From Armatimonadota bacterium (GTDB lineage Bacteria; Armatimonadota; SYMT01), in assembly GCA_041690135.1 (NCBI GenBank), contig JAWLHY010000010.1, positions 122,110 through 186,109 of the forward strand: a stretch of 64,000 bases of DNA, given 5' to 3'. Below the pieces are notes generated by a model. The model saw only the letters and a list, made by a program, of their open reading frames with translations. It had not been told where the DNA came from and did not search any database. Below are positions 3,019 through 27,253 of this stretch, in pieces (the first letter of the stretch is position 1; the number at the start of each line of letters is the position of its first letter). The position numbers and the translations under genes were made by a program.

Positions 3019-3535
3019 GGGGAACCGTCCGCGGTACGGCACCGCGTCTGCGGGTTTTGTTACGCCTGGCCGCCGCTTGTTTCAGGAGATCGTGTGGCAG
3101 GTGGCTACCTGCCATACCTGTCAGGTAGATCCAGTTTGCCCGTCGCCAGATAGGGTTCCTGCTCAAGCCGGTCCTGGCAATCGAACATCCAGGCTTGGTG
3201 TTAGGGTCGCCACCCCCCGAAATCCGGGATGCCTTGCCCCATCGGGTGCCGGTCCTGGTGGATGCCAGACCGGGCAGGTACCGGCTCTCGCAGACCGTGT
3301 ACCTGGAGATTTCCGGCGCGCGGTCTCCGGAAGGCGGGTTCTCGACGCCCGCACCTACGACCGACGGATTTCACCCCCGCCATACGCTCACCAGTGGGGA
3401 GTTGCGATTGGAGATTGCAGTGGGTCGGCGATAAGCGCTCCCAGAGCGCCGGTGGCGGAGAGACGCAGGGTTCATACGCACGACTGTAACCCGATGGCAC
3501 ACGCGGGCATCTACACGATGGAAGGAGCACACCCA

Positions 3536-5925: not shown

Positions 5926-7278
5926 TCAGCGCTCGGAGGCGGGGATGTTCAGGACGATCAAGCCGGGCTGGCCGAAAGTCAGCTCCCGGCCGGCATTGGG
6001 ATCGAGCGGCGCGCCGTTGAAGGCGATGTAGAGGCGGCTTCCGTCCGCGCTGCATTTCAGGTTATAGGTGCCGCCCACGTTCCAGCGCAGCCGATCCCGC
6101 AGCGGCGCGTTCAAGAAGGCCAGAACCTTGCGCTCCCGTTTCGCCAGGTCGTACTGGACGACCGGAGTGCCGTAGCGTGCGGACTGCCCGTGAGCACCCG
6201 GCGCGTAGTAGAGGTACTTCTCATCGGGAGAGAGCGCCATCACGGCCACATACTCGCCCTTCAGGAAGTTAGCTCCCAACTCCGTCACCATGTCCGTCTT
6301 CGGGTCGAAGGCAAAGAGCGCGCCATCTTTGGTCATGCCGAAGAGGCGGCCATTTCTTGCCGGGCGGGTCGAAGCGCGCAGGAACCGGCCGCCTGTCTTG
6401 CCCGGAGCGGCACCCGCAGCCAGGGGCAGTTGCGCGCGGGTCCGGGTGACCCGGTTTTCGGACGGTGAATAGCGGGCTAGGAAGCCGTCCGCGGTGCTGA
6501 AGTAGCAGTGCCCCGCCGCATCCAGCATCAGGTTCCGGCTGCCTTCTTGCTGGTCACCGCTGCCCCGGTAGAGCACCTTGCGGGCGGTGAGATCGTAGGC
6601 AACGAAGTCACCGCTATAGACCGCCGTGAAGTACTGGATCATCCGCCGGGGGTCCAGGAGCGACGTCGGAAGCCCCTGACCGGGCACGATCGCTCCCAGG
6701 CTCTCGCTGCGCCCCGAACTGGGGTCGTAGCGGAGGAGGACCGATCCCAAGTACCCGGCCTGGAAGTCTGCTTCCTTCGGGATCTTGCCCCAGTAGGTGG
6801 AGAAGTAGAGCAGGCCGTCCTTTCCCTGATCGATTCGGGAGTGGACCTTGCCTGCGGCATACCTTTCCTTCGATTCGGGGAGCGCCTCGCGGAGGTCCAG
6901 TGCGGCGCGCACGGTGCGGTGGTGCGGGTCGTACTCGTACAGGTAGCTCTGACCCTCGGGGCCGAGGTGATTGCCCAGGGCGAAGTAATAGCGCCCGTTC
7001 GAGGCCACGCAGCCGTCGCCCCAGTTGCTCCAGAGCGTCTTCGGACCGGCCGAAGGCAGTCCCTCGAAGACGTGGATATCGATGGTCGGTGCGGTGCGAG
7101 CGATGCGGAATCCCGGCTTTCCTTCGAGCGCCGGCGGAACTGTCAAGAAATCCGGCGTCTCGATCCGGCGCAGGCTCACCGAGGGAGCAGGATCCGCTGC
7201 GCCGGTGCGGCGCTGCCCGCCGACCGTGGCGACCACAACCCCCAGCAGGGCAACATACCCGACGTATCTCCTGGTCAT
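5926..7278 (-). CDS. Secreted hypothetical protein, probable beta-propeller
   Basis: 450 aa with N-terminal signal peptide; start overlaps stop of upstream gene by 4 nt (7275-7278). Confidence 0.75.
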   Translation of the reverse strand: MTRRYVGYVALLGVVVATVGGQRRTGAADPAPSVSLRRIETPDFLTVPPALEGKPGFRIARTAPTIDIHVFEGLPSAGPKTLWSNWGDGCVASNGRYYFALGNHLGPEGQSYLYEYDPHHRTVRAALDLREALPESKERYAAGKVHSRIDQGKDGLLYFSTYWGKIPKEADFQAGYLGSVLLRYDPSSGRSESLGAIVPGQGLPTSLLDPRRMIQYFTAVYSGDFVAYDLTARKVLYRGSGDQQEGSRNLMLDAAGHCYFSTADGFLARYSPSENRVTRTRAQLPLAAGAAPGKTGGRFLRASTRPARNGRLFGMTKDGALFAFDPKTDMVTELGANFLKGEYVAVMALSPDEKYLYYAPGAHGQSARYGTPVVQYDLAKRERKVLAFLNAPLRDRLRWNVGGTYNLKCSADGSRLYIAFNGAPLDPNAGRELTFGQPGLIVLNIPASER

Positions 7279-9020
7279 TGGGGCTCCTCCGCTTTTTGGT
7301 CGGAAACCTGGGCACCGCTCCGGATCTCGATGCGCTGGTTTGGCGTCACGTTTTTGCGAACGACGGTGCCGGCTCCGTGAGGAAGCGTGACTTCCACGTC
7401 GACTCGCTCTGCATCGCCCAGGCCGAAATGCGCGATGGCCGGCTGGCCGGATGCATAGCCGTACCCGGTGGCGATCTCACGGCAGCCAAGCAGCGCGGAC
7501 GGGCTGCCGAGCTTCCCGGACGGGTACACGTCGATCCGGGAGCCGATCCCCATCCGGTTCACGCCGCCCTCTCCGCGGACCTGCACCTGGAGCCAACCGC
7601 CTCCGGGAGTCTCGTTCCGCAGCAGCAGCGAGGGCGCCTCGGCCCACCAACTCGGCAAGAACATATCAAGGCGGCCATCGTTGTCGTAATCTCCGGTAGG
7701 TCCCGGGGCACTGTAGAAGACCTTCCTCTCACGGAGCATCCTGGCGAACAGTTCACCCGCCCTTCGGGTCGCCCGATCTTCTTCCGTGGGGAAGTCGTTC
7801 ACCGCCAGCGCATTCTCCCGGAAGCGCGGGAGGCCATCCCGCACTCCCAGGTTCTTGAAGATGACCGGATAGGGCTTACCTCCCGCAAACTTGACGATAC
7901 TGACGGAGAGGTCCGGCCAGCCGTCGTTGTCGAAGTCCTGCACTTCCACGTGCGGCGCCTTCATCGGCAGCGGCTTCAAACCGGCGGCTTCCGTAACGTC
8001 CTGGAAGTCGGGCTCCCCATTCCGGAGCCCCCGGTTGAGGTAAAGCCGCACCGGCACCGGCTGCTGCCAGGGCCGCTCATAGTGCTGGCCGACCACTAAG
8101 TCGAGCCAGCCGTCGCGGTTGACATCGGCGAAGCCGGCGCCGCAGATCATGTTGTCGCCGCCCGCATCCTTCCAGGCGAACCTCTCGCGGGAGCCGGGCG
8201 CCTCGCGGAATTTGGCTTCTCCGGCGTTCAGAAGCAGAACGTTACCACCGTTGTTGGCGGCCAGGAAAAGGTCCGGGCGGCCGTCGTTGTTCACATCCCC
8301 CGCGGCCACCCCCAGGCCGGGGATTGCCTCCGGCAGCCCGGCGGCGCGAGAGACGTCTTCGAACCGGAGGTTACCGAGGTTGCGGAACAGGCGGGAGCTT
8401 TTCGTGGAAGAACCGTTGTATCCGGGGAGAGGGTCCTCACCCGCCAGGATGTCCAGCAGGCCGTCTCCATCGAAATCTAGTACGGTAGCACTCCGGCCTC
8501 CGAAGGCGGGTGGGCAGGCCCCATTTCCGGCGGAAACGTCGGTGAAGCGGCCCTGTCCGTTGTTTCGGAAGAGGGTGCACCCCCGCAGCGCATGGCCCTC
8601 CCGCAGCGCGAGACGGCTGCCCTCCGGTGCGGGCATACTGGAGACATAGAGATCCAGGTCGCCGTCGTTGTCCAGGTCGGCAAAAACCGAGGCACTAGCG
8701 CGTGAGGAGATCCGGAGTTCCTCCTGCTCATCGAGCCGGAACCGGCCGTCGCCCCCGCGGAAGAACCGGTTCGACTTTCCACCGTCGGTATGGAACGTTG
8801 CCACGTACAGGTCGAGCCACCCGTCGCCATCGGCATCTCCCCAACCGGCGGCATGCCCGCGGATGCCCTCAAGCGCCGGAAACAGACCCGATTGCTGCCC
8901 CATATCCCGGAACAGGAAAGTTTGCTCCTCTTTTTCCGCGGCGCTCAATGCGGGAAGGAGCGCTAACAGCACGCCGACACCCACCGCCCGGAGGCTTTGC
9001 TTCACGTTCCGATCCATCAT
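7275..9020 (-). CDS. CRTAC1-family protein (FG-GAP/VCBS repeats + ASPIC/UnbV domain)
   Basis: Repeated DxDGDGxxD calcium-binding FG-GAP-like motifs (DADGDGWLDLYV, DLDNDGDLDLYV, DFDGDGLLDIL, DFDNDGWPDL) and C-terminal UnbV-like region (GIGSRIDVY..GYGYASGQPAIAHFGLG); signal peptide. Confidence 0.85.
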   Translation of the reverse strand: MMDRNVKQSLRAVGVGVLLALLPALSAAEKEEQTFLFRDMGQQSGLFPALEGIRGHAAGWGDADGDGWLDLYVATFHTDGGKSNRFFRGGDGRFRLDEQEELRISSRASASVFADLDNDGDLDLYVSSMPAPEGSRLALREGHALRGCTLFRNNGQGRFTDVSAGNGACPPAFGGRSATVLDFDGDGLLDILAGEDPLPGYNGSSTKSSRLFRNLGNLRFEDVSRAAGLPEAIPGLGVAAGDVNNDGRPDLFLAANNGGNVLLLNAGEAKFREAPGSRERFAWKDAGGDNMICGAGFADVNRDGWLDLVVGQHYERPWQQPVPVRLYLNRGLRNGEPDFQDVTEAAGLKPLPMKAPHVEVQDFDNDGWPDLSVSIVKFAGGKPYPVIFKNLGVRDGLPRFRENALAVNDFPTEEDRATRRAGELFARMLRERKVFYSAPGPTGDYDNDGRLDMFLPSWWAEAPSLLLRNETPGGGWLQVQVRGEGGVNRMGIGSRIDVYPSGKLGSPSALLGCREIATGYGYASGQPAIAHFGLGDAERVDVEVTLPHGAGTVVRKNVTPNQRIEIRSGAQVSDQKAEEPQ

Positions 9021-9062: not shown

Positions 9063-10484
9063 TCAGGCGCGGATGCCGTCGATCGGCTTCCCCTCTCGGT
9101 CGGCGGGACCGAGGCGCTGCTTCGCATCCATTGCGGCCAGCATGGTGTTGTACACGTCGAGGCCCTCGGCGCCGACATCCAGGATCTGGCCGGTTTTGAA
9201 GCGGCCGTTGGCGCCGGTGATGGCGTGGAAGATCCCCGACAGCTCTCGCTTGACGTTGTTGTGGCGACCGTCCCCGGACTCCGTGGAGATCGTGATCAGC
9301 GAGTTATCCAGGATGGTGCGACCGTTCGCCTCCACCGACTCCGGGCCGTCGAGCCGCTGCAGGAAGTAGGCGACCTCGCGCATCTTCAGGTGGGCATGGG
9401 CGCGCAGGTGTTCGTTCCGCTTCCCCTCGTTGAACTCGTGCCACCATTCGTGGCTGCAGCCCTGCGATCCGAACTTCTTGCGCTGGCCGGCGTCGTCGAA
9501 CTGGAAGACGGTCCTGCCGGCGTAGTCGTAGCGACCCTTGAGCCGGATGCGCTCGCCCGCCGCCAGGAAAGTGATCGAGCCGAAACGGACGCGGTCGGTC
9601 TGGATCGCGAGGGCGTAAAGGTCCGCCATCAGACGCCATTCCTCGGTCAGGTCCTCCAGGGTAATGTCGATCCCCTCACCGCCGGGGTCCGCCGCGCCGC
9701 CGTGCACGATCTCGGAAGGCGGCGGCATGGGCGGCCGCCGGAGCTTCTTCTCGTCCAGGGCGAAGGCGCGCTGCTCGTACTCGCGGATCCGCTCCAGGTG
9801 CTCGGCGATGCGCGCGCGGGAAGCAGTGCCCAGCGGCGAGGTGCGCCCGGTGAAGTACCGGTATTGGTCCACCACGGAGTCGAGGACGCTCCGCTTGATG
9901 CGCCGGACGCGCGGGTCGAGCACGGCTTCCGGCACGGAACCGAACACGCGTTCGAAGAGATCGCGAGGGGTCTCCTGCATCGCCGCCGCCACGGTGCCGT
10001 CCGGGTTGAAGCTCTTGGCGTAGCGGCTCACCCGGTCGCGCCGGAAAAAGGTGCCGGCGATGAGCGTGGGGACCATGCCGGACGGCAGCCCGGCCGGGTA
10101 GTGCGTCGCCCGGACCACCTGGTCGAGGGAAGGGCCCCCCGCCTTGGCGGTGCCGGCGGGCGGCTCCGCAGTGAAGGCGGCGGTGGCCCCATCGCGGTGC
10201 GCGTTCTCTCCGGGCACGTCCGTGCGTATCTGGTCCACATTGCGCATGATGAGCAACTTCCGGCCCAGCGGCTGGAGCGGCTCCAGCACGCCGCCGAACC
10301 CTTCCGCCTGCAGTGGGGACGGGATCCCCAGGCCGAAGAAGACGTTGAACGCCCGCACGGGAACCTGGGCCGCGGGGGCGGCCGCGGCGGGCAGCAGGAG
10401 CATCTCTTCCAGGAGCGGCAGGCCGATCGTTACGGCGCCCGCACCCTGAAGCACGGTGCGCCGGCTAAGGGGTCGTCTCGTCAT
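9063..10484 (-). CDS. DUF1552 domain protein (Tat signal)
   Basis: N-terminus MTRRPLSRRTVLQGAGAVTIGLPLLEE, typical DUF1552 twin-arginine leader; 4-nt overlap with upstream DUF1592 gene. Confidence 0.85.
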   Translation of the reverse strand: MTRRPLSRRTVLQGAGAVTIGLPLLEEMLLLPAAAAPAAQVPVRAFNVFFGLGIPSPLQAEGFGGVLEPLQPLGRKLLIMRNVDQIRTDVPGENAHRDGATAAFTAEPPAGTAKAGGPSLDQVVRATHYPAGLPSGMVPTLIAGTFFRRDRVSRYAKSFNPDGTVAAAMQETPRDLFERVFGSVPEAVLDPRVRRIKRSVLDSVVDQYRYFTGRTSPLGTASRARIAEHLERIREYEQRAFALDEKKLRRPPMPPPSEIVHGGAADPGGEGIDITLEDLTEEWRLMADLYALAIQTDRVRFGSITFLAAGERIRLKGRYDYAGRTVFQFDDAGQRKKFGSQGCSHEWWHEFNEGKRNEHLRAHAHLKMREVAYFLQRLDGPESVEANGRTILDNSLITISTESGDGRHNNVKRELSGIFHAITGANGRFKTGQILDVGAEGLDVYNTMLAAMDAKQRLGPADREGKPIDGIRA

Positions 10485-13171
10485 GGTAGGCTCTCCGCGG
10501 GGTTCTTCTGGATCAGGTCGCTCAGCACCAGGGCGGAAACCAGGGCGGCGTAGGTGCCTCCACCCTTCTGTGCGGCCGCATGGATCCGGTCGATCGCGGG
10601 ACCGTCCGCCTGCACCAGCGGGCGGCCCAGGGCGAACTGGACCACCTTCCGCGTGATGTTCTTCTGGACCCGCTCGTTCCGGGCCAACAGGTCCATCAGT
10701 TGCGCGGTGGTCGTGTAGGAGGCGGGCTGGTTCGTGCCGGGGAAGAGGATCTTGCCGTCCTCCCGCAGCGGGTTGCCATGCTCGTCTCGCTCGTGGTAGC
10801 CGCCTACGCCATCGAACTTCTCCAGCCCGAAGGCCAGGGGTTCGAAGCGGGCGTGGCAGCCGCCGCAGGCCGAATTGGCGACGCGCTGCTCCGCGACGGC
10901 GCGCCGCGACTGGCCCGGCCGGGGCGGCACGGGGGTGGTGTCCACGCCGGGCGGAGCACTGCCGATCTCGCTGTAAAGGAGATCCCGCAGGATGAATAGG
11001 CCACGGGCGACCATCGACGCTTCGTCCCCGCCGACGGTGAGCACGCTGCCGTGGGTCAACAGACCGCCCCGGCTGGACACCTGGGTGAGGTCGTAGCGGG
11101 TCGCCTGGCGGACCGTGGCGCGGATCTCCTCCGGGGTGAGGGCCCGGTTGTAGAGGGCCACCTGGTGGAGCGTGCCGTGCCAGGGGCGGTCTCCGGTGGT
11201 CTCGTTGCCCAGGACCAGGCGGAAGTCCTCACCCCAGTTCGAGAGGTCGCCCGCCGTTTCGCCCGAACTCTGCACTTCGCCGTTCACAAAGAGCCGCGTC
11301 TTCCCGGCGGCATCGCGAGTGTAGGCCAGGTGGGTCAGTCGGGTTCCGGCCGTGCCGTCGGGGCTGCCCAGGCCGGGAAGGCCATTGGCGTCGGTCCGGC
11401 TGCCCCGGAAGCGGACCTCAAAACGGTCCTTCTCCTGCCCGAGGGTGAAGTTCCGCTGCAGGGCGCCGGAGGAGAGCGTAAGGATGCGGGCCGGCCCCTC
11501 CTGTTTCGTATTCGCGGGAGTGACCCAGGCTTCCAGCGACAGGGCTTTGGACTGGCGGACCGCCGCGACGAGGCGTTTCGGTGGTTGGGCACCGGCAATG
11601 ACCGTGGGCCCGGTCACCACGAGACCGCCCTGCTCCCAACTTACTGCCGCGGGGCTCGAGATTTTCAGGTCGAGCGCCTCGCCGGCCCCGGAGGTGTCGC
11701 GCACGGTATCGCCCTGGCCCTCCCCGAAGGTGTAGAGCGCCTGCAGCCCTTCCCGCCGCACGCGGTTGGCCAGGTTGAGTGGGAGACCGTAGTGCGCCGC
11801 CAGGTGGGGGGTGGCGAAGGTGACCCGCGCGTTCATCAGGTCGGCAAGGGGCCGCTTCTCCTTCCAGGCGATCTCCTCGAAGAAGGCGAGCGTCTCCTTC
11901 CGCATGTCGGCGGCGAGTTGGCCGCTCCAGGATGGGAACCGGCGAGGGTTGGGGCGCAGGTTGCCGAGCCGGTCCAGGTTGAGCCACTCGGAGATGAACT
12001 GGCGAGACCGGAGGATGGCGCGCGGGTCCTGGAGCATTCGGTGCACCTGCGCTTCCACGCGAGCCCGTTTGGCGAGGTCACCGGCCTCCGCGGCGCGCAG
12101 CAACTCGGCATCCGGAGGGCCGCCCCAGAGAGTATAGCTGAGGCGCGAGGCGAGCTCGTAAGGTCCTACGGGTCGCAGGTTGCCGGCGCTCTTTCCGACG
12201 CCGGCCTTATCCGCCTCCGCTTCGATCCGGTAGAGGAACCGGGGCGACTGGAGCATCGCCTCGACCACGTACCGGACGGCTTCCGTGTACCCGCCGCCCT
12301 CGCCGGTAACCGCTTTCGCCACCCGGTGGAAAGTGTCGATCTCCTGTGCCTGAAGCGGGCCGCGTAGGAGCCACTTCCCCATCGCCGCAATCAGACGGCG
12401 CATGGAGGCCTCGCCCAGGTCTTGCCCCTTCACAAACCGCGCGGCGAACCGGTCCACGTCCATGCGCCCGACCACGATCTCCGCGAGCCGGGCGTACCCT
12501 TCCACGTGAGCGAGATCCGCGGAAAGATTGTAGGCGGTGTTGGTGAACCCGTCGGCGCGCACGTCCGGCGGCAAGATGCGGCGGGCGTCCTCGGCCACGT
12601 CCACACCGGTCGCGCTGCGAACAGTCTCCACGTACTCCGGCACCGTGAGCCGGCGGAGCCAGTGGTGCGCGGACCGCCGCTCGCGGGTGTGGGTCAGAGG
12701 ATCGATGGTACTGCCGGACCAGACCGCGCCCGCGTCGATCCACTCGCGCAGCGCCCGCTTCTCCTGGGGCGACAGGCGCGGCCGGTCCATCGGCGGCATG
12801 ACGCCCGACGCTACGTGCTTCCACAGCAGGCTCTCCGCCGACTTGCCGGGCACGATCGCCTTACCGTGTGCGCCGCCGGACAGGGCCGTTTTCTTCTGAG
12901 AGAGGTCCAGGCCCCCCTGCTTCGAGCCCGGTCCGTGGCACGCCAGGCAGTGCCGCGCCAGCAGCGGCACGATCTGCGCCTCGAACTGCCGGGCGGCGAT
13001 CACCGGGACAGGAGGGGCGGAGCCACCGGCGCCGCTCGACGCCTGAACCGCCACCAGCGGGGCGAGACAACCGACCGCGGCGAACAGGTGGCGGGCCTTT
13101 ATCCGGCCGGGTTGGGTTACTCCGCGAGCGGTCCCGCGAACGACGCGGGGTGCTTCAGCTGGGAATGGCAT
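10481..13171 (-). CDS. DUF1592/DUF1588/DUF1585-type multidomain protein with cytochrome-c-like CxxCH motif
   Basis: N-terminal CLACHGPGSKQGGLDLS motif, internal SACGGCHARFEPLAFGLEKFDGVGGYHE, C-terminal GGGTYAALVSALVLSDLI; classic partner of DUF1552. Confidence 0.85.
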   Translation of the reverse strand: MPFPAEAPRVVRGTARGVTQPGRIKARHLFAAVGCLAPLVAVQASSGAGGSAPPVPVIAARQFEAQIVPLLARHCLACHGPGSKQGGLDLSQKKTALSGGAHGKAIVPGKSAESLLWKHVASGVMPPMDRPRLSPQEKRALREWIDAGAVWSGSTIDPLTHTRERRSAHHWLRRLTVPEYVETVRSATGVDVAEDARRILPPDVRADGFTNTAYNLSADLAHVEGYARLAEIVVGRMDVDRFAARFVKGQDLGEASMRRLIAAMGKWLLRGPLQAQEIDTFHRVAKAVTGEGGGYTEAVRYVVEAMLQSPRFLYRIEAEADKAGVGKSAGNLRPVGPYELASRLSYTLWGGPPDAELLRAAEAGDLAKRARVEAQVHRMLQDPRAILRSRQFISEWLNLDRLGNLRPNPRRFPSWSGQLAADMRKETLAFFEEIAWKEKRPLADLMNARVTFATPHLAAHYGLPLNLANRVRREGLQALYTFGEGQGDTVRDTSGAGEALDLKISSPAAVSWEQGGLVVTGPTVIAGAQPPKRLVAAVRQSKALSLEAWVTPANTKQEGPARILTLSSGALQRNFTLGQEKDRFEVRFRGSRTDANGLPGLGSPDGTAGTRLTHLAYTRDAAGKTRLFVNGEVQSSGETAGDLSNWGEDFRLVLGNETTGDRPWHGTLHQVALYNRALTPEEIRATVRQATRYDLTQVSSRGGLLTHGSVLTVGGDEASMVARGLFILRDLLYSEIGSAPPGVDTTPVPPRPGQSRRAVAEQRVANSACGGCHARFEPLAFGLEKFDGVGGYHERDEHGNPLREDGKILFPGTNQPASYTTTAQLMDLLARNERVQKNITRKVVQFALGRPLVQADGPAIDRIHAAAQKGGGTYAALVSALVLSDLIQKNPAESLP

Positions 13172-13271
13172 AGAGTTTGTGTCACCAGGACGGTTCCGCT
13201 GTTGCCTTCCTTCTTTCTACAAATCTATTGGGGGCCCCTGCGCGAAACGGCAAGGGTGAACTACAGGCCGA

Positions 13272-15722
13272 TCACTGGAGAGAAGTGCGCACGCGCTCGG
13301 GCTGCCGCAGGGTGGGAGCAAACCGGGCGTAAGGGAAATGCCGGCCGCCCACGCGCCATCGGATGAACCTGGCCGCCCCCGGGGAGGCGTTGAAGTAGCC
13401 ATCCGGCGTGGTTGCCAGCCAGTCGAGGCCTTCCTCATCTTCCGCTCCGGGCAGCAGGCGGAGGGTCGCGAGCTGCCGGCCACTCTCAGGATCCCAGACC
13501 TGAGCGGTCGCCGCAGGGCCGCCGATGATGAGCCGCTTCCCGTCCGGCGAGAACTGTGCACTCGTTCCGGTCCCGGCGATCCGGCGCAGCTCTTTGCCGG
13601 TTTCGACTTCGACGATGTGGATGTTTTCATCACCCACAATGGCAGCGCGCCTGGCGTCTGGGGAGAGCGCCCCGGTGTCCAGGCTCCACTCGAGCGGCAC
13701 TTGATGGACCCGCAGCACGCGGCCCTGTGGCACGCTCCAGCTCTTCACCATACCGGAGCGGTGGAAGCTGAAGTCGTCTTCCGCAAGCGCCGTCAACCTT
13801 CTCCCGTCCGGGGAGAACCGGATCTGCGTGATACTGCTGCCGGCATTCGTGAGCGTCTTGAGCAGCTTGCCGGTCTGGGTAGACCAGAGCTTGATCATCT
13901 GGTCCGAGTCGGCGGTGGCGAGGATCCGGCTATCGGGAGAGAACGCGACGCGGCTCGGCGTGCCGGTATGTCCCACGAACCGGTGGAGGCGCTTTCCCGT
14001 GGCGACGCTCCAGAGAGAATACTCGGACACCTCCGTTTCCAACGGTTCCCCCACGCCCAGAGCCAGCAGCCGACCGTCCGGGGAATAGTCCAGCGCGAGA
14101 ACGGAAGTCTCACTGCCCCCAATCGAGCGGGGTTTTCCGCCCGCGCTCCAGAGGAGCAATCTTCCATCCTGGCACCCGGTGGCCAGGATCTTTCCGTCCG
14201 GTGAGAACGCGAGGTCCCGCACCGAGCCGAAGAAGAACGGGTTCGACCAGGTCAGGGAGCCGTCGCGCAAGTTCCACCGGCCGACCTGCCCCATCTGCTC
14301 GACCAGGAGGGCGGGACTGCCCGTCCCCACGGCGAGGGTCTGCCCATCCCGGGTAACCGCCAGGCTGACCGTGCTCCCCATTTCCGCATCGTCAGCCACC
14401 GGAAGCTCGCGCACCAGCTTTCCCGTTTGCGGATTCCACTCCTGAACGCCGATCCAGTTCTGGGACTGTCCACCGATATCAAACGTCACGAGGGAGCCCC
14501 GTCCCGGCCAGAAGAGCAGGCTGCGGCCGATCCCACGCGCCTTGAGGGTGTGCTTGAGCTCCCACGTCGCCGTGTCCCAAAGGCGGACGAGGTTATCGGA
14601 GCCCTGCTCGGGTTTCTCTGCCCCGGGTTCCCCGAGCGCCGGCATCGAACTGATCGCCAAGAGCTTTCCATCCGGCGAGAACGCCACCCGGCTGGCGCCC
14701 TCCGGCACCTCCAGTTTGCGGATCATCTCCCCATTGCTGGCGCTCAGCACGTGGACCACTCCCTGCTGAAAGCTACCGGCCGATACTACCATTGCGGAGC
14801 TGTCCTTCGTGAAGTAGACGTCAGCGGGAGGAAATCCGGGCGTGTCGAGGAGACGAGGTGAACCAAGCAGCATGCCCGAAGGGAACGACCACAGGCGTAG
14901 TGTCCCATCGGTGAGACATGCGACCAGCCTTTGGCCATCGGGGGAGAACTCCAGGTTGGCCAGGGGCGGCAGGTCCACGTTGAGGTTGAAGAATGCGCCA
15001 AAAAGCTTCCTGGCGGCCTGCGCAAACGGCTTGGCTTGCGCAGGCAGACTCTCCGCGGGGTTGAACAGATCACCGGATTTGGCCTGGCGCTTCAGTTCAC
15101 CGAACGGCAGGCGGCGCGTCACCCGCATGCCCTGAAGATCCCACAACAGAACCGTGTTGTCCGGTCCCCCCGAGACCAGGGTTTGCTCGTCCAGCGAGAG
15201 GGTTGCGGGCGTCCGTGCCCCAGGCAATTCGGTGACCTTGCCGGACTTCGGGTCTTTGATCCGGAGCGCTCCCCCTTCATCGGCGACCAGGATGCGGCCG
15301 CCCGGCAACCGGAGATTCGGCCCGGGCGGGGCCGGATCTTCCCGCAACTCACCCGTACGCGCGCTCCAGATGAAAGATTTCACATCGCCGTCGTTCCGGG
15401 CGTCGAAGTGGAGTTCCGAGCTATCCTCCGAAAAAGCCAGGTTCTCGGCGACACCGTAAACGCTGGAAAACTTGAACGGCAACACCTGGCGCAACTCCAG
15501 GGATTGCCCGTCCCAGATCCGCACCGTGTCGTCGCTGCCGCTGCTGGCGAGGAGCCGGCCGTCCGGCGATATGGCGAAGTCGACGATCCGCCCGGTGTGG
15601 CCGATCTGGAGGACCATCTCCGGCCTGGCATCACCCGCGCCGGCGCCGCTGGGGATCGTACCCGCCTGAGCCGCGAGGCCGGCAAACGCAACCAGGGCCA
15701 TCGTCATGAAGGAGCGTCTCAT
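13272..15722 (-). CDS. WD40-repeat protein with signal peptide
   Basis: Multiple WD40-like units (GHTGRIVDFAISPDGRLLASSGSDDTVRIWD, SPDGKLLAISS, FSPDGKILATGCQDGRLLLW, FSPDSRILATADSDQMIKLW); start overlaps ankyrin gene stop (ATGA). Confidence 0.85.
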   Translation of the reverse strand: MRRSFMTMALVAFAGLAAQAGTIPSGAGAGDARPEMVLQIGHTGRIVDFAISPDGRLLASSGSDDTVRIWDGQSLELRQVLPFKFSSVYGVAENLAFSEDSSELHFDARNDGDVKSFIWSARTGELREDPAPPGPNLRLPGGRILVADEGGALRIKDPKSGKVTELPGARTPATLSLDEQTLVSGGPDNTVLLWDLQGMRVTRRLPFGELKRQAKSGDLFNPAESLPAQAKPFAQAARKLFGAFFNLNVDLPPLANLEFSPDGQRLVACLTDGTLRLWSFPSGMLLGSPRLLDTPGFPPADVYFTKDSSAMVVSAGSFQQGVVHVLSASNGEMIRKLEVPEGASRVAFSPDGKLLAISSMPALGEPGAEKPEQGSDNLVRLWDTATWELKHTLKARGIGRSLLFWPGRGSLVTFDIGGQSQNWIGVQEWNPQTGKLVRELPVADDAEMGSTVSLAVTRDGQTLAVGTGSPALLVEQMGQVGRWNLRDGSLTWSNPFFFGSVRDLAFSPDGKILATGCQDGRLLLWSAGGKPRSIGGSETSVLALDYSPDGRLLALGVGEPLETEVSEYSLWSVATGKRLHRFVGHTGTPSRVAFSPDSRILATADSDQMIKLWSTQTGKLLKTLTNAGSSITQIRFSPDGRRLTALAEDDFSFHRSGMVKSWSVPQGRVLRVHQVPLEWSLDTGALSPDARRAAIVGDENIHIVEVETGKELRRIAGTGTSAQFSPDGKRLIIGGPAATAQVWDPESGRQLATLRLLPGAEDEEGLDWLATTPDGYFNASPGAARFIRWRVGGRHFPYARFAPTLRQPERVRTSLQ

Positions 15723-18070
15723 CGTTTCCCACCCGCCCGCTTGAGGTGGCGGACCACCTGAGTGTGACCTTCCTCTTCCGCCATCGCGAGCGCCGTCTTC
15801 CCATCCTTCGCGCGGAGTGCGGCGTTAGCCCCCTTCGCCAGCAGGAGCTTCACCATCTCCAGGCGTCCCGCGCTTGCCGCGCTCATCAATGCCGTGTGGC
15901 CGTCGTCCGTCCGCGCGTTGATCTCGGCGCCCTTCGCCAGAAGGAGCCCGGCAATCGCAAGGTTCCCCTTGTGCGCCGCCGCCATCAGAGGGCGGGCGCC
16001 CATCTCGACGGGCACGTTCGGCCGAGCGCCGCGCCCCAGGAGCATGCGGGTCACTTCCGTCTCGTTGCGGTAGACGGCGATAAAGAGAGGGCTTCCGATG
16101 GGAGTCTTCTGGTTCGGGTCCGCGCCGCTCCGGAGAAGGAGCCGCACCAGATCCGCCCGCGTCCACTGGTCGGCGAGCAGTCCCTCCGCCAGCTTTTCCG
16201 CCAGTTCCCCGAGCTTCTCCGGGTTTGGGACCCGCTCCAGGGCGCGGCCGACCGCGTCGGCGGCCTTGGGCGGAAGAAGCGGCTCCGAGGGTGCGGCAGG
16301 CTCGGGAAGCGGCTCCCGCGCGGCGGCCGGCTCCGCCTGGCGCGGGTCATCTCGATCCGGAGCAAGAGCCAGGAACAACGGGGTACCTCCCCGCGCACTG
16401 GCGAGGTTCGGGTTCGCGCCTTTCTCGAGCAGCAGCCGGACGAGGTTCAGGTCCTGCATACCGGATTGCGCCCAGCGCAAAAGTGCGTGGTGCAGCGCGG
16501 TGTTTCCGTCAGCATCTTTCGTGTTGGGGTCCGCCCCATTCGCCAGCAGCATCCCCGTGATCTCGGTGTTGGCGCCGTAGGCGGCGAGCATGAGGGGCGT
16601 CACCCCTCCCTGGTGCCGGGTGTTCGGGTCCGCCTTCGCCTCCAGGAGAGCCCGTACCCCCTCCTCCGGGCCGAAGAGCGCCGCCTGGTAGAGCGCCGTG
16701 TTGCCGGCCGCGTCCTTCGCGTTCGGGTCGGCCCCTTTCTCCAGCAGCATCCGGATCAGCGTCTCACTGTGGGCGTTCGCCGCCTGGACGAGGGCAGGCG
16801 TACCCTGCTCATCCTTCTGGTTCGGGTCGGCACCGCGCTCCAACAGCGCGCGGGCGGAGACGGCGTCTTCAGCCTCAATGGCGGCCAGAAGATCCTTATG
16901 GGGAAGCTCCGCGCCGGCCTTCACGAGCACCTCCACGACCTCCGGGTTATCTTGCTGGCCCGCCTTCAGGAGGGGAGTATTCCCCTGCGCATCGCGAGCA
17001 TTCGGCGAGGCCTTACGCTCCAGGAGCAGCTTGACCGCGGCCACTGCCCCATGCTCGGCCGCTTTGAGGAGGGGCGTAACGCCGGTGCTGTCTGCGGCAT
17101 TTGGGTCGGCACCTTTCTCCAGGAGCACCTGCAGCACCTTCGGTTCCTCCAGGGTGGCTGCCGCGTGGACCGCGGTCGCGCCCTGCTCGTTCCGCGCCCG
17201 GATGTCCGCGCCCTGTTCGATCAGGAGCCGGACGATCTCGACGAACCCCCCATCCGCCGCCGCCATCAGAGCGGTCTGGCCCGAACTCGTAGCGGCATTG
17301 ACCTCCGCCCCCTTCGCCAGGAGCGTCTGAATCAGCGCGGCATCACCCAACCGCGACAGCGAGATGAGCGGCGTCTCGCCCTCTCGGTTGCGGACTTTCA
17401 CCTCGGCGCCGCGTTCCAGCAGGAGCCGGGCCAGATCCGCCGTCTCGGCCAGAGCGGAGAGCATCAGCACCGAATCGCCGTCGTAGTCCCGGGCATTGAG
17501 GTTCGCGCCGCGTTCCAGCAGCAGGCGCGCCGTTTCCAGTTGGCCGGTCTGCACGGCCCAGGCGAGCGCGGTGAGCCCCCGGTTGTCCCGCAACTCCAGC
17601 GCGGCGCCCCGATCCAGCAGCAATCGGACCAGTTCGACGTGGCCGTTCCCGGCGGCCTGCATCAGGGCGGTGGTGCCGTCGTTGTTTTCGGCATCTATGT
17701 GCGCCCCGCCATCCAGGAGCGCGCGGGTGAGGGGGAGATGGCCCGCATGGGCTACGAGAGAAAGCACCCGGAAGCCTTCCCGATCCACAAGATCGGGGTC
17801 AACTCCCTGCGCCAGGCGCGCGCGGACACCCGCTACATCCGCGGCCGCCAGCAACGCCAGCAGGCTGGGTGGGGATTTCGGCACGGCCTTGCGGGCAGGC
17901 GCCGGCCGTGTTCGGGCAGGAGCCCGGCGTGTCTTTCCCGGAGCGGTATGCGCCGGTAGGGATGCGCCGAGGATCGCCAGGAGAGCAGTCGTCGCAGGCA
18001 GGAAACGGTGGTGCATTCGGGGCGACATGGCTTGGCCTCGCTCGAGACGGATTCCAGGTTGCCCGAACAA
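15719..18070 (-). CDS. Ankyrin-repeat protein (about 20 repeats) with N-terminal signal-like segment
   Basis: Tandem ankyrin units (DGTTALMQAAGNGHVELVRLLLDRGA, GQTALMAAADGGFVEIVRLLIEQGADI and many more); true start may be an internal Met (MSPRMHH.. or MHHRF..). Confidence 0.85.
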   Translation of the reverse strand: MFGQPGIRLERGQAMSPRMHHRFLPATTALLAILGASLPAHTAPGKTRRAPARTRPAPARKAVPKSPPSLLALLAAADVAGVRARLAQGVDPDLVDREGFRVLSLVAHAGHLPLTRALLDGGAHIDAENNDGTTALMQAAGNGHVELVRLLLDRGAALELRDNRGLTALAWAVQTGQLETARLLLERGANLNARDYDGDSVLMLSALAETADLARLLLERGAEVKVRNREGETPLISLSRLGDAALIQTLLAKGAEVNAATSSGQTALMAAADGGFVEIVRLLIEQGADIRARNEQGATAVHAAATLEEPKVLQVLLEKGADPNAADSTGVTPLLKAAEHGAVAAVKLLLERKASPNARDAQGNTPLLKAGQQDNPEVVEVLVKAGAELPHKDLLAAIEAEDAVSARALLERGADPNQKDEQGTPALVQAANAHSETLIRMLLEKGADPNAKDAAGNTALYQAALFGPEEGVRALLEAKADPNTRHQGGVTPLMLAAYGANTEITGMLLANGADPNTKDADGNTALHHALLRWAQSGMQDLNLVRLLLEKGANPNLASARGGTPLFLALAPDRDDPRQAEPAAAREPLPEPAAPSEPLLPPKAADAVGRALERVPNPEKLGELAEKLAEGLLADQWTRADLVRLLLRSGADPNQKTPIGSPLFIAVYRNETEVTRMLLGRGARPNVPVEMGARPLMAAAHKGNLAIAGLLLAKGAEINARTDDGHTALMSAASAGRLEMVKLLLAKGANAALRAKDGKTALAMAEEEGHTQVVRHLKRAGGKR

Positions 18071-18191
18071 TTCTTGCTTTATGGCCTGGTTGAGCGATGT
18101 GCGGACAACGGGACCGTGGTCAGTTCGACATCATGCAGCAGTCTACCTTTGTGAATTGCCGCAGGGATTGCCTTGCCGCGTTGGGCCGCAC

Positions 18192-24088: not shown

Positions 24089-24568
24089 ATGGACGCCGTA
24101 CTGCGCGCCGCCGCGATCTATAGTTTCTTGCTACTGCTGTTCCGTATTGCAGGGAAACGTACGTTCCAGGAGATGACTCCCTTCGACTTCGTCCTGCTGC
24201 TGGTGATCGGAGAGTCCACGGAGCATGCCCTGCTCGGGGATGACCGGTCGGTGACGCACGGGCTCTTGCTGATCACCACGTTGGTCGGCCTGGACGTGGC
24301 AATGTCCCTCTGGAAGCAGCGTTCACAGCGCGTGGAAAAGCTCCTGGATGGTGTTCCTCTCATTCTCGTGGCGGAAGGGCAGCTCATCCGGCAGCACATG
24401 GAGAAGGAGCGAGTGGACGAGGTGGACCTTCTGGAGAGCGCGCGCCGTCACCACGGGTTGGAGCGCCTGGACCAGATCCGCTATGCCGTGCTGGAACCCG
24501 GAGGCGGCATCACGATCATCCCTGCGGAAGAGACGAGCAAAGCCGCGCAGGATCGAATGGCGGCCTGA
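24089..24568 (+). CDS. DUF421 (YetF-like) membrane protein
   Basis: LRAAAIYSFLLLLFRIAGKRTFQEMTPFDFVLLLVIGE typical of DUF421 N-terminus. Confidence 0.8.
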   Translation: MDAVLRAAAIYSFLLLLFRIAGKRTFQEMTPFDFVLLLVIGESTEHALLGDDRSVTHGLLLITTLVGLDVAMSLWKQRSQRVEKLLDGVPLILVAEGQLIRQHMEKERVDEVDLLESARRHHGLERLDQIRYAVLEPGGGITIIPAEETSKAAQDRMAA

Positions 24569-24743
24569 TCCAGGGAGTGAGACAGACGGTTGGCGCCTCG
24601 CGAAATGGGGAACTAACCCCAGCGGTAGCCCACCGACATGCGGTTCAGGAGTAGACCTTCCGAGCCCCAATGGAGCCAGGGAAGGGGCATTCGGGATTGA
24701 TGCCCCATGCAATGACCGGTGGGCTTCGGCAGGAACGGGGGAT

Positions 24744-25850
24744 ATGCAGCTGAAGACCGGAGTTCTCACCTTCCATCGTTGTTTCAACTACGGCAGTTAC
24801 TGGCAGGCGCGGTGCCTGGTCGAAGCGTTCCGGGAGCGGGGTCATAACGCGGTGCTGCTGGATCACCAGTCCCCCCGGGTGGAGCGTGCCGAGCGCAAGT
24901 GCGGCTTCGAGCCCGTCTTGCCGACTCCCGTTCCGCGAGAGGATCACTTCCTGTACGGGCGCAAGATCGCAAAGTTCCAGCGCGCGTTCGCCGCACTACC
25001 GCGATCATCGCGGTTCCCGCTGGATCAGCCGGAAAAGTTGCCCAGGTTCGACCTGGTGGTCGTGGGCAGCGACGAAGTGTGGAACCTCCGGCACCCGTGG
25101 TACGCCCGGTTTCCCCTCTTCTTCGGCGAGGGGCTGCCGGCTAACCGCCTGGTCTCCTATGCGGGGAGCTTCGGGAACTATCATGCCGCCGAGGGTCTGG
25201 ACCGCGAGTGGTCGGAGCGGCTGCGGTCCTTCGAACGGCTGTCGGTGCGCGATGAAAACTCCCGGGTCCACCTCCGCTGCGCACTCGGGGTCGAGCCGGA
25301 GTTGGTCCTCGATCCGTGCCTGCAATTTCCCGTCCGGCCGGAGGGACGCTGGCGGGGTCCGCGCGAATCGTTTGCCCTGGTTTACGGACACAACTTCCCG
25401 GAGACCTTCGCCGGGCAGGCGCGCCGGTGGGCGGCCGAGAGGGGCCTGCCCCTGGTCAGCATCGGTTACCGCAACGACTGGGCCGACCGCCAGTGGATCA
25501 CCGCCGGACCCCATGATTTCGCGCAGGCGATGGAGCGCGCCGCGGCCGTGATCACCAACTTCTTCCACGGCTGTGTCTTCGCCCTGCGGAACGCCAAGCC
25601 GTTCATCTGCGGGCTCACTCCGTATCGTTCGATCAAGGTGGAGAACCTACTGGCAACGGTCGGAGGCGAAGAGCATCTGGCCACTGAAGCCACCGGATAC
25701 CCGGAGTATGCGGACCGTCTCAACTCCCCAGTGGATCCTTCCATCCTCCGCCGCATGGATGCGCTCCAGCGGTCGTCGGAACGGTTTCTCGAAGAGATCG
25801 CCGGAAAGGAGGCTAGCTTGCAGGCTCGAATGGAAGGGGCCGCGGCATGA
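24744..25850 (+). CDS. Polysaccharide pyruvyl transferase family protein
   Basis: MQLKTGVLTFHRCFNYGSYWQARCL N-terminus characteristic of PF04230-type pyruvyl transferases; ORF-track start 24348 rejected as upstream extension; SD aggaacgggg before ATG 24744. Confidence 0.8.
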   Translation: MQLKTGVLTFHRCFNYGSYWQARCLVEAFRERGHNAVLLDHQSPRVERAERKCGFEPVLPTPVPREDHFLYGRKIAKFQRAFAALPRSSRFPLDQPEKLPRFDLVVVGSDEVWNLRHPWYARFPLFFGEGLPANRLVSYAGSFGNYHAAEGLDREWSERLRSFERLSVRDENSRVHLRCALGVEPELVLDPCLQFPVRPEGRWRGPRESFALVYGHNFPETFAGQARRWAAERGLPLVSIGYRNDWADRQWITAGPHDFAQAMERAAAVITNFFHGCVFALRNAKPFICGLTPYRSIKVENLLATVGGEEHLATEATGYPEYADRLNSPVDPSILRRMDALQRSSERFLEEIAGKEASLQARMEGAAA

Positions 25851-27253
25851 CCGAAGCGGCGCGCGCAAAGGGGCCCGAAGCCATCAGTCCCGCCCAGGTC
25901 GTGCACTCCGGTCTGTGTATCGGATGCGGAAGTTGCGTGTCGCAGGCGCAGTCCCCGGATGCACTGATCGTGCTGGATGATTACGGGCAACTTCGGCCCA
26001 GTGGACCCCCGGATTGGTTCCGCTCGAGGTCGGAGGTACTGGCGCGGACTTGCCCGTTCTCACCCACCGCACACAATGAAGACCGGCTGGCCGCGGAGTT
26101 GTTTCCCGAGGTCGAGCAGTATCCGGACATCGGCCGGATGCGGGGCGCTTACGTGGGCTATGTCGAAGAGGTGGGCTTCCGCGACCGCGGCAGCTCCGGG
26201 GGCATGGTGAGCTGGGTCCTTTCCGAACTCCTGCGCGCCGGCAAGGTGGATGGAGTTGCCCACGTGGTGCCGGTGGATGATCCACAGCAGGATGGACGCT
26301 TCTTTCGCTACCGGATCTCGCGCACGCCGGAGGAGGTGTTTGCCGGGGCCAAGTCCCGCTATTACCCGGTAGATCTCTCCGGAGTGCTGCAGACCATCCG
26401 GGCCCATCCGGGTCGCTATGCCGTGGTGGGGGTGCCCTGCTTCATCAAGGCGCTGCACTTGCTCCGGCAGGAAGATCCAGTGGTGCGCGAGCGGGTAGTG
26501 TACACCCTCGGACTGTTCTGCGGGCACATGAAGAGCGCACGCTTTGTGGAGAGCTTCGCCTGGCAGATGGGGGTGGACCCGCGGGAGGTGCGGAAGGTGG
26601 AGTACCGCCTGAAGGACCCCAACCGCCCCGCCAGTACGTACACCACCGAGTTGACGCTGCGGGACGGGACGGTGGTGAAACGCGACTGGTGGAACCTGGC
26701 CGACGGAGACTGGGGCGCGGGCTTTTTCCAGTATTCCGCCTGCAACTTCTGCGATGATGTAATCGCGGAGACCGCGGACATCTCCTTCGGCGATGCGTGG
26801 GTAGAGCCCTACTCCTCGGACGGAAGAGGCACCAACGTGGTAGTGACCCGGTCCGCGGAGATGGAGACGCTGATTGCCGGAGGGATCGACCAGGGCCGCC
26901 TTAGTCTGCAACCGGTGGACAGTGAATTTGTGGTAGCGACCCAGGCCGCGGGGTTCCGGCAGCGGCGTGAGGGCCTCTCCTACCGGTTGTCCTGGCCCCG
27001 GCTGGGGCTTCGTCCCCAGAAGCGCGTGGCACCCGACACCCGGCATCTCAGCCGGCGCCGTAAACTCATCTACCGGATGCGGCACCTGATCAGTGCGTGG
27101 AGCCATCGCATGTCCTGGCTCGCGCAAAGAACGGGGCGACCGGAAATCTATGTCCGATGGGCGCGGACTTCCCTGGCGCTCTACCACGGGCTGGCCTACT
27201 CACGTGGACGCATCGGCGAGATTCTCTCACGAGTTCGAGGGTTGCAAGAGTAA
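25847..27253 (+). CDS. Coenzyme F420 hydrogenase/dehydrogenase beta-subunit-like (FrhB-like) Fe-S flavoprotein
   Basis: CIGCGSC ferredoxin-like cysteine cluster at N-terminus, FrhB N/C-like regions (YVGYVEEVGFRDRGSSGGMVS, GLFCGHMKS, CNFCDD); ATGA overlap with pyruvyl transferase gene. Confidence 0.8.
   Translation: MTEAARAKGPEAISPAQVVHSGLCIGCGSCVSQAQSPDALIVLDDYGQLRPSGPPDWFRSRSEVLARTCPFSPTAHNEDRLAAELFPEVEQYPDIGRMRGAYVGYVEEVGFRDRGSSGGMVSWVLSELLRAGKVDGVAHVVPVDDPQQDGRFFRYRISRTPEEVFAGAKSRYYPVDLSGVLQTIRAHPGRYAVVGVPCFIKALHLLRQEDPVVRERVVYTLGLFCGHMKSARFVESFAWQMGVDPREVRKVEYRLKDPNRPASTYTTELTLRDGTVVKRDWWNLADGDWGAGFFQYSACNFCDDVIAETADISFGDAWVEPYSSDGRGTNVVVTRSAEMETLIAGGIDQGRLSLQPVDSEFVVATQAAGFRQRREGLSYRLSWPRLGLRPQKRVAPDTRHLSRRRKLIYRMRHLISAWSHRMSWLAQRTGRPEIYVRWARTSLALYHGLAYSRGRIGEILSRVRGLQE

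Follow-up and report, generated by a model that had tools for sequence, protein, structure and literature searches.

What are two large repeat proteins, one built of ankyrin (Ank) repeats and the other of WD40 repeats, doing side by side in a bacterial genome, and do they act inside or outside the cell? The question is raised by a gene pair on the minus strand of a 64-kb stretch (64,000 nucleotides; the window) of Armatimonadota contig JAWLHY010000010.1. A first-pass annotation of this DNA had described the pair as giant secreted proteins of 783 and 816 aa, translationally coupled and forming an extracytoplasmic interaction module or an effector-like pair. We confirmed both open reading frames (ORFs) on the minus strand, 15719..18070 (783 aa from a TTG) and 13272..15722 (816 aa from an ATG), and Pfam confirmed their repeat classes. 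The start proposed for the ankyrin gene did not hold up, the real one probably being a conserved ATG at 18028 (769 aa) rather than the TTG at 18070, and with ~770-816 aa the proteins are large, not giant. The explanation that we tentatively favor, while giving it less than an even chance, is that the two are co-produced, Sec-exported periplasmic scaffolds that bind each other and further partners, and that they are a lineage-specific accessory to an adjacent gene pair encoding a planctomycete-type cytochrome (PSCyt) protein and a DUF1552 protein.

The evidence comes in large part from comparison with a second locus. When 5.8 billion protein clusters were searched with the WD40 protein, two true relatives were found, P0001 (the same gene) and P0002 (71%), the rest being generic WD40 proteins at ~28%. 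P0002 lies on a 20.9-kb Logan contig, L001, which carries a 771-aa ankyrin gene (79% identical) and an 817-aa WD40 gene joined by an ATGA overlap. After the WD40 gene the order is again the same, with a PSCyt/PSD/LamG gene (86%) followed by a DUF1552 gene (92%). This four-gene order is kept while both flanks differ; the gene upstream of the ankyrin gene, for instance, encodes an ABC-F ATPase in the window and a GT87 glycosyltransferase in L001. The pair is therefore syntenic in the only related locus that we found. Its features in the window are as follows, with signal cleavage points marked by a slash.

18029..18191, minus strand: intergenic region upstream of the ankyrin gene, presumed promoter region, with several blocks conserved with L001.
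15719..18028, minus strand: ankyrin-repeat gene, 769 aa from the conserved ATG (MSPRMH...), with its stop TGA at 15721-15719.
17960..18028, minus strand: Ank residues 1-23, signal-peptide-like segment MSPRMHHRFLPATTALLAILGAS, candidate cleavage GAS/LPA (ALS/LPA in L001).
17864..17959, minus strand: Ank residues 24-55, Pro/Arg/Lys-rich basic linker (LPAHTAPGKTRRAPARTRPAPARKAVPKSPPS), also in L001 and 5 residues longer there.
16364..17863, minus strand: Ank residues 56-555, ~15 consecutive 33-residue ankyrin repeats.
16169..16363, minus strand: Ank residues ~556-620, a ~65-residue Pro/Glu-rich insertion plus amphipathic helix, kept in L001 with a 3-residue gap.
15722..16168, minus strand: Ank residues 621-769, the last 4-5 ankyrin repeats and a C-terminal cap.
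15719..15722, minus strand: ATGA start/stop overlap of the ankyrin and WD40 genes, kept in L001 at 4076-4079.
13272..15722, minus strand: WD40 gene, 816 aa from the ATG within ATGA.
15663..15722, minus strand: WD40 residues 1-20, predicted signal peptide MRRSFMTMALVAFAGLAAQA/G (MMRAFIPATLLVLAAFAAQA/G in L001).

The probable ankyrin start at 18028 is preceded, after a 7-nt spacer, by a GAGG ribosome-binding site (18036-18039). Both the ATG and the GAGG are kept in L001, where the stop-to-stop frame opens just 10 codons upstream of the conserved ATG. A promoter scan found no sigma-70 consensus. The protein is an ankyrin-repeat protein by its tandem 33-residue repeats, which score above the gathering thresholds of PF12796 and PF00023 (Ank_2, E=1e-122, 401 bits against a cut-off of 27.3, in ten stretches; Ank, 3e-103, 332 bits). 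The LLxxGAxxN helix-2/turn signature recurs ~19-20 times at 33-residue spacing, and the regularity of the array is broken by one short repeat, one 38-residue repeat and one repeat with the ~65-residue insertion, which sits between the two helices of that repeat. The protein contains no cysteine, and its C-terminus has neither a sorting signal nor a hydrophobic anchor. A single-sequence AlphaFold2 (AF2) model was too poor to use (pLDDT 55). Recent repeat amplification was considered and rejected, as a 99-nt periodicity is absent from the DNA of the gene.

Short tandem repeats in the DNA do occur in the Pro-rich, non-ankyrin segments (30 nt x1.9 at 16276-16333; 21 nt x2 at 17892-17932), and the lengths of these linkers, which differ by 3 and 5 residues in L001, may vary by slippage. 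A 737-aa ORF with a gene-like GC3 of 0.78 runs antisense to the ankyrin gene (15746-17959, plus strand). It is most likely a shadow of the GC-rich, Ala/Leu/Gly-rich ankyrin gene, and the Pfam matches and the selection signal described below belong to the minus-strand frame.

The WD40 protein matches PF00400 (E=4e-54, 179 bits, cut-off 27) together with many other beta-propeller families, and the fold of its model agrees with this profile match. The AF2 model, built from a 27-sequence alignment, has a mean pLDDT of 79.7 and a pTM of 0.64 and is all-beta, with ~15-16 four-stranded sheets, a low-confidence helical insert (210-244), a short C-terminal tail (~767-816) and an isolated N-terminal helix (2-20). 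Judged from this model, the protein would be a tandem (double) beta-propeller. Foldseek against the PDB ranked tandem double propellers best (2ymu from Nostoc, Pwp2/Utp proteins and ciliary WD proteins), with E-values from 1e-35 to 1e-24 (2ymu, 3e-35), TM-scores of merely 0.37-0.52 and identities of 12-23%. These matches reveal the fold class only, with no functional clue. The likeness to Nostoc punctiforme 2ymu and to Pwp2/Utp-type proteins thus lies in two consecutive propellers and overall fold, whereas those proteins are cytoplasmic or nuclear and have no signal peptides. Pfam found no NTPase, kinase or helix-turn-helix (HTH) domain in either the ankyrin or the WD40 protein, and the latter has neither a PSCyt1 domain nor a CxxCH motif, so that it is not one of the PSCyt1/WD40 proteins.

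The two genes meet in a junction read as ...AAACGATGAGACGC and also given as ...GGGAAACGATGAGACGC, in which ATG 15722-15720 and TGA 15721-15719 share ATGA, as the first-pass annotation had it. In L001 a GGGAGG lies 6 nt upstream of the ATGA (4076-4079). The four-nucleotide ATGA is the commonest same-strand overlap in bacteria, and two further ones occur in the same gene cluster (10481-10484 and 7275-7278); by itself the overlap is therefore unremarkable. Its conservation nevertheless suggests that the ankyrin and WD40 genes are a translationally coupled pair. The overlap also bears on the start of the WD40 gene: P0001, the NCBI product of the same gene (100%, 811 aa), starts at Met6 (window 15705-15722 affected), which drops the Arg-Arg n-region and the ATGA overlap. 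Since the L001 orthologue has no Met at this position, the annotated P0001 start is probably wrong and the conserved ATG within ATGA probably right.

We then considered whether the proteins leave the cytoplasm. The signal-like N-terminal segments noted earlier on both were recovered with a rule-based scan, a crude one and not SignalP, that looked for a net positive charge in the n-region, a hydrophobic core free of charged residues, small residues at -3/-1 and a residue other than Pro at +1. Both proteins also have the features of a Sec/SPase I signal, that is, a positive n-region, an h-region of 7-15 residues, small -3/-1 residues and no lipobox, with cleavage at AQA/G in the WD40 protein and at GAS/LPA or LPA/HTA in the ankyrin protein, and the same shape is seen in L001. 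For WD40 the N-termini read MRRSFMTMALVAFAGLAAQA/GTIP in the window and MMRAFIPATLLVLAAFAAQA/GPAP in L001; for Ank they read MSPRMHHRFLPATTALLAILGAS/LPAHTAPGK and MSPRMHFSFLPASAALAVVAALS/LPALAAPAK. These segments are the least conserved parts of the two proteins (Ank 58%, WD40 47% identity), yet the n/h/c pattern is retained, as expected for signal peptides. The rule flagged six of six consecutive minus-strand genes between 18028 and 5926, four of the 15 other window proteins (an M20 peptidase, two small proteins and the first transmembrane helix of SecDF) and none of the 11 window proteins without a hydrophobic N-terminus. Apart from these segments both repeat proteins are free of hydrophobic stretches, and both lack a lipobox and a C-terminal anchor. 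Export of both proteins, as inferred from sequence, is well supported.

Comparison of the window with L001 by the Nei-Gojobori method gave dN/dS values of 0.21 for Ank, 0.23 for WD40, 0.14 for PSCyt and 0.09 for DUF1552, with a dS of 0.48-0.83 over the four genes (0.74-0.83 for Ank and WD40). The values of 0.21 and 0.23 show that both are real genes under purifying selection, and that they evolve faster than their PSCyt/DUF1552 neighbors. Ankyrin repeats 1-2 (residues 67-132) show 91-100% identity with L001, yet 20-30% of their third positions have changed. This silent change speaks for selection on the protein, and recent recombination as the cause of the invariance was rejected on the same ground. 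The pattern points to repeats 1-2 as a putative constrained binding surface.

The pair heads a minus-strand run of six genes (18028 to 5926) made up of three pairs, Ank then WD40, PSCyt(DUF1592) then DUF1552, and FG-GAP/ASPIC then a 450-aa protein, each of them ATGA-coupled. The remaining members of the run are listed here.

13172..13271, minus strand: WD40-PSCyt spacer, 100 nt, without a terminator-like hairpin.
10481..13171, minus strand: PSCyt gene, 896 aa, PSCyt1-PSD3-PSD5-PSD4(DUF1592)-Laminin_G_3-PSCyt3-PSD2.
9063..10484, minus strand: DUF1552 (HXXSHH) gene, 473 aa, with a twin-arginine (Tat) motif SRRTVLQ, ATGA-coupled to the PSCyt gene.
7275..9020, minus strand: FG-GAP / ASPIC-UnbV gene, 581 aa, with a predicted signal peptide; absent from L001.
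5926..7278, minus strand: gene for a 450-aa protein, predicted to be exported, ATGA-coupled to the FG-GAP gene.

A terminator scan found no terminator-like hairpin between the six genes, and terminator-like sites were not above shuffle expectation; the spacer between the DUF1552 and FG-GAP genes is 42 nt. The PSCyt protein has CxxCH motifs at residues 75 and 769 and a predicted signal peptide ending ...VQA/SS. Given its two CxxCH haem motifs and the Tat motif of the DUF1552 protein, these two neighbors must act outside the cytoplasm. All six genes carry export signals, and the extracytoplasmic-module half of the earlier proposal thus fits the locus. The 450-aa protein had no match in Pfam, PADLOC or a PDB sequence search, which also gave no meaningful match for DUF1552 or PSCyt; motifs such as LSPDEKYLYYAPG in it suggest another beta-propeller-like fold. 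A comparison of L001 (10510-11433) with the window (5926-9020) shows that L001 lacks the FG-GAP/ASPIC gene along with some 244 codons (~244) at the start of the 450-aa gene, whose last 206 codons (86% identity) directly follow DUF1552. In the simplest reading the six-gene arrangement would be ancestral and L001 would have lost ~2.5 kb, leaving a truncated gene; an insertion in the window lineage is the less simple alternative.

The explanation that we favor connects these observations as follows. One coupled cassette would yield two Sec-exported, soluble repeat scaffolds in roughly matched amounts, the first a ~20-repeat ankyrin solenoid behind a basic proline-rich linker and the second a tandem WD40 propeller. 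Both would be exported to the periplasm or envelope of a diderm bacterium and serve there as protein-binding platforms, most likely for each other and for partner proteins. Heading three ATGA-coupled, all-exported pairs, the cassette is probably co-expressed with the PSCyt(DUF1592)/DUF1552 pair, for which it might act in complex assembly, substrate recognition or activity control. A parallel would exist in PVC bacteria, where WD40 and Big_2 domains occur either as fusions with PSCyt proteins or in genes next to theirs. Actual export and cleavage, binding between the two proteins, co-transcription with PSCyt and a functional link to it are steps that we infer; the mutual binding, the co-transcription with the PSCyt pair and the service to it are plausible but unproven.

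The parallel is to published cases. For PSCyt1/WD40 genes in DUF1501-PSCyt clusters of PVC bacteria, a part in assembling complexes or recognizing substrates was proposed (Kamneva et al. 2012, PMC3542564), and WD40 "PPI" domains have also been described as fusions to PSCyt proteins (He et al. 2017, PMC5615132). As there, a WD40 propeller is found with an exported planctomycete-type cytochrome cluster that has a Tat-exported partner. Unlike there, the WD40 protein lacks the PSCyt1 haem domain and with it any CxxCH motif, its gene is coupled to one for an ankyrin protein, the cluster belongs to the PSCyt3/DUF1552 instead of the PSCyt2/DUF1501 type, and the organism to the Armatimonadota instead of the PVC bacteria. 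The last point agrees with the fused SecDF encoded in the window (59974-62826), whose nearest named relatives are Armatimonadota including Capsulimonadaceae (48-68% identity), and two of the closest same-architecture PSCyt proteins also come from Armatimonadota. The cassette is in this sense an ordinary kind of bacterial repeat-protein pair, extracytoplasmic ankyrin and WD40 proteins beside a PSCyt cluster.

How widely is this arrangement distributed? A scan with the WD40 protein of one genome for each of 185,579 species returned 45 loci, all with generic WD40 proteins of <=38% identity and none adjoining an Ank, PSCyt or DUF1552 gene. In the JGI metagenomes the WD40 alignment found no orthologue, and the Ank alignment found eight generic small Ank proteins, none adjoining a WD40 gene. 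Homologue searches with the ankyrin protein itself were swamped by generic repeats and missed even the 79%-identical L001 orthologue, so they carry no weight on distribution. Within the data searched the pair is thus confined to the window and L001, and the absence of further orthologues from the species genomes and the JGI metagenomes marks the cassette as lineage-specific. The PSCyt/LamG protein, by contrast with the pair, has many relatives. The closest same-architecture PSCyt then DUF1552 relatives (62-68% identity) came from seven contigs representing five distinct loci (L047/L048, L049/L050, L051, L052 and L053/L054), of which L047/L048 is an Armatimonadota metagenome-assembled genome (MAG). 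Those reaching far enough all keep PSCyt then DUF1552, mostly with the same 4-nt overlap. To judge from these comparisons, the Ank-WD40 cassette is a rare lineage-specific addition placed before a widespread PSCyt-DUF1552 cassette.

In these relatives the neighbors of the PSCyt and DUF1552 genes include DUF5060, Spherulin4, a GFO/IDH/MocA oxidoreductase, FGE-sulfatase and a GT-C transferase. At L047 8372-16667 and L049 8746-9966 the two genes lie amid carbohydrate-active-looking genes, including beta-helix/pectate-lyase-like ones, and the FGE-sulfatase is in L051. Such surroundings are in line with a conjecture in the literature that PSCyt proteins with LamG domains have sugars as their substrates.

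Several observations weigh against our explanation. Ank/WD40 adjacency to PSCyt and DUF1552 is seen in the window and L001, and in none of the five next-closest loci (0/5) is an Ank or WD40 gene nearby, although L052 reaches only ~310 nt upstream and says little. Because of these five loci, the PSCyt link may be mere adjacency in one narrow lineage, and the synteny evidence consists of a single second locus. The WD40-PSCyt spacer, moreover, holds a 23-nt block, TTGTAGAAAGAAGGAAGGCAACA (13200-13222, minus strand; L001 6583-6605), that is identical in L001 while the rest of the spacer is ~60% conserved, and the PSCyt-DUF1552 pair may have in it a promoter of its own, a leader or a regulatory site. 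It occurs once in the window and otherwise only in L001, being absent upstream of more distant PSCyt genes (window and all loci), and is therefore no general PSCyt leader. As for export, the c-region of the window ankyrin protein is imperfect (AHT/AP has Thr at -1, HTA/PG has Pro at +1), so that the signal may remain uncleaved and act as an anchor. From DARPin export work, ankyrin repeats are also known to fold fast and to be poor post-translational Sec substrates.

The likeliest alternative is that the two proteins are an independent periplasmic pair without any tie to PSCyt, their position before PSCyt being an accident of a lineage-specific insertion. The ankyrin protein might, for instance, inhibit an envelope enzyme stoichiometrically or act as its chaperone, with WD40 as co-scaffold or target. 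We consider this somewhat unlikely. It agrees with PSCyt-DUF1552 being a self-contained ATGA-coupled cassette in all relatives, lacking Ank/WD40 in the five distinct loci, with the 23-nt block as a possible promoter of PSCyt's own, and with the higher dN/dS of Ank/WD40 (0.21-0.23) than of the neighbors (0.09-0.14). It also has a characterized precedent in Bd3460 of Bdellovibrio bacteriovorus, a periplasmic six-repeat ankyrin self-protection protein that carries a signal peptide and binds exported endopeptidases (PMC4686830). Like Bd3460, the ankyrin protein has a Sec signal and would be periplasmic (both predicted here), binding exported proteins and encoded beside its partner. The likeness goes no further than repeat-level similarity, with no detectable orthology: Bd3460 has 6 repeats and 23 kDa against ~20 repeats and 80 kDa here, and its partner is a DD-endopeptidase instead of a WD40 propeller. 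No candidate target enzyme (peptidase or hydrolase) is encoded beside the pair, and both the four-gene order kept in L001 despite rearranged flanks and the lack of a terminator-like hairpin in the spacer speak against independence.

A topological variant of our explanation keeps the ankyrin N-terminus as an uncleaved signal anchor, with the basic Pro-rich linker as a rigid, TonB-like spacer off the inner membrane and the cleaved WD40 propeller docking onto it. The window ankyrin protein indeed lacks a clean AxA site (Pro after HTA; Thr at -1 in AHT/AP), a conserved ~30-residue Pro/Arg/Lys linker directly follows the signal segment, and membrane-tethered versions of the same combination exist in metagenomic single-chain BlaR1_M56-PD40-ankyrin proteins (P0288, P0291 and P0363). 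These join a propeller array and ~20 ankyrin repeats in one product behind a membrane-anchoring domain. They differ from the present pair in having PD40 instead of WD40, the propeller before the ankyrin repeats, and one anchored chain where we find two soluble ones, and their similarity is at repeat level only (33-34%). In BlaR1 the sensor domain lies outside the cell, and by analogy the repeat arrays of these proteins may be extracytoplasmic as well. A permanent anchor is nonetheless unlikely, since L001 has a good ALA/AP site, both orthologues have a plausible xxS/LPA site, and the hydrophobic core of ~15 residues, broken by Pro and Thr, is short for a stable transmembrane helix.

Could the pair, conversely, be more closely bound to its neighbors than an accessory? 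There is a small chance that the ankyrin solenoid and double WD40 propeller are dedicated periplasmic subunits of the PSCyt(DUF1592)-DUF1552 machinery, in a multi-scaffold envelope complex that may include the FG-GAP and 450-aa propeller-like proteins. If this were so, it would be the first ankyrin array recruited to a planctomycete-type cytochrome system, and its defined binding partners would give a lineage-specific handle on the function of the PSCyt/DUF1552 families, unexplained since 2004. Under the accessory explanation the pair would make a large two-protein addition to the short list of extracytoplasmic bacterial ankyrin proteins, of which Bd3460 is the characterized precedent, and a single coupled cassette would be seen to produce an ankyrin and a WD40 scaffold jointly. 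The position of the pair could offer an experimental entry into the PSCyt/DUF1552 families, which abound in Planctomycetota, Verrucomicrobiota and Armatimonadota and have no known function. The practical importance is modest, because the pair is so far confined to two assemblies and nothing contradicts existing knowledge.

The other half of the earlier proposal, that of secreted eukaryote-like effectors leaving the cell to manipulate a eukaryotic host or grazer, we consider very unlikely. Ankyrin and WD40 repeats with signal peptides are a classic symbiont signature, and ankyrin, WD40, TPR and LRR "eukaryotic-like proteins", often signal-peptide-bearing, have been reported from sponge, coral and amoeba symbionts (e.g. 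PMC10947273); the very narrow distribution and relatively fast evolution of the pair would also suit effectors. Those symbiont proteins, however, form expanded families in host-associated genomes, whereas the window holds one Ank and one WD40 gene in 64 kb, within a PSCyt cluster and with no family expansion. NCBIfam models of Dot/Icm ankyrin effectors (type IV secretion system, T4SS; AnkH, AnkY, AnkG, AnkX and others) stayed far below their cut-offs, the best being AnkH with 238 bits against 600 in a repeat-level, multi-stretch match, and none of the window ORFs that we scanned was recognized as a secretion-system gene. Nor does a dN/dS of ~0.2 hint at an arms race. Among named relatives, the nearest are MAGs of free-living-type Armatimonadota, not known symbionts; Armatimonadota are known as free-living bacteria. 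The PSCyt/DUF1552/FG-GAP neighbors have likewise been placed in free-living saccharolytic bacteria (PMC5615132).

That the signal-like segments are spurious and both proteins cytoplasmic scaffolds is highly improbable: most bacterial WD40 (STAND NTPase/kinase-linked) and ankyrin proteins are of this kind, and among the generic top matches of the two, cytoplasmic repeat proteins linked to STAND/NACHT, kinase or HTH domains predominate, but neither protein has such a domain, the n/h/c pattern at both N-termini is kept in the orthologue despite low identity, every neighboring same-strand gene carries a predicted export signal, and the PADLOC matches are at repeat level only. An anti-phage defence role (MZA, PADLOC models) was rejected, as MzaA scored 237 bits against 800, PADLOC matched at repeat level with nothing for the four neighbors, and both proteins carry export signals.

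Three further observations concern the rest of the window, which has a G+C content of 60-70% throughout. A second planctomycete-type cytochrome gene, PSCyt1/PSCyt2(DUF1549)/PSD1(DUF1553), lies at 4-3081 on the minus strand and extends past the start of the window. The DUF1501 gene that usually accompanies such a gene would fall outside the window, and the location of this PSCyt gene on the same strand makes the region a small PSCyt island. At 36738-40004 (minus strand) a large, cytoplasmic 1088-aa protein with WGR and DUF4132 domains is encoded. At 24348-27253 (plus strand) a polysaccharide pyruvyl transferase gene shares a 4-nt overlap with a gene for an FrhB/FdhB-like F420-hydrogenase beta-subunit protein. 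A PhyH-family dioxygenase gene comes next, and the products of these three, an unusual combination, may modify a cell-surface polysaccharide.

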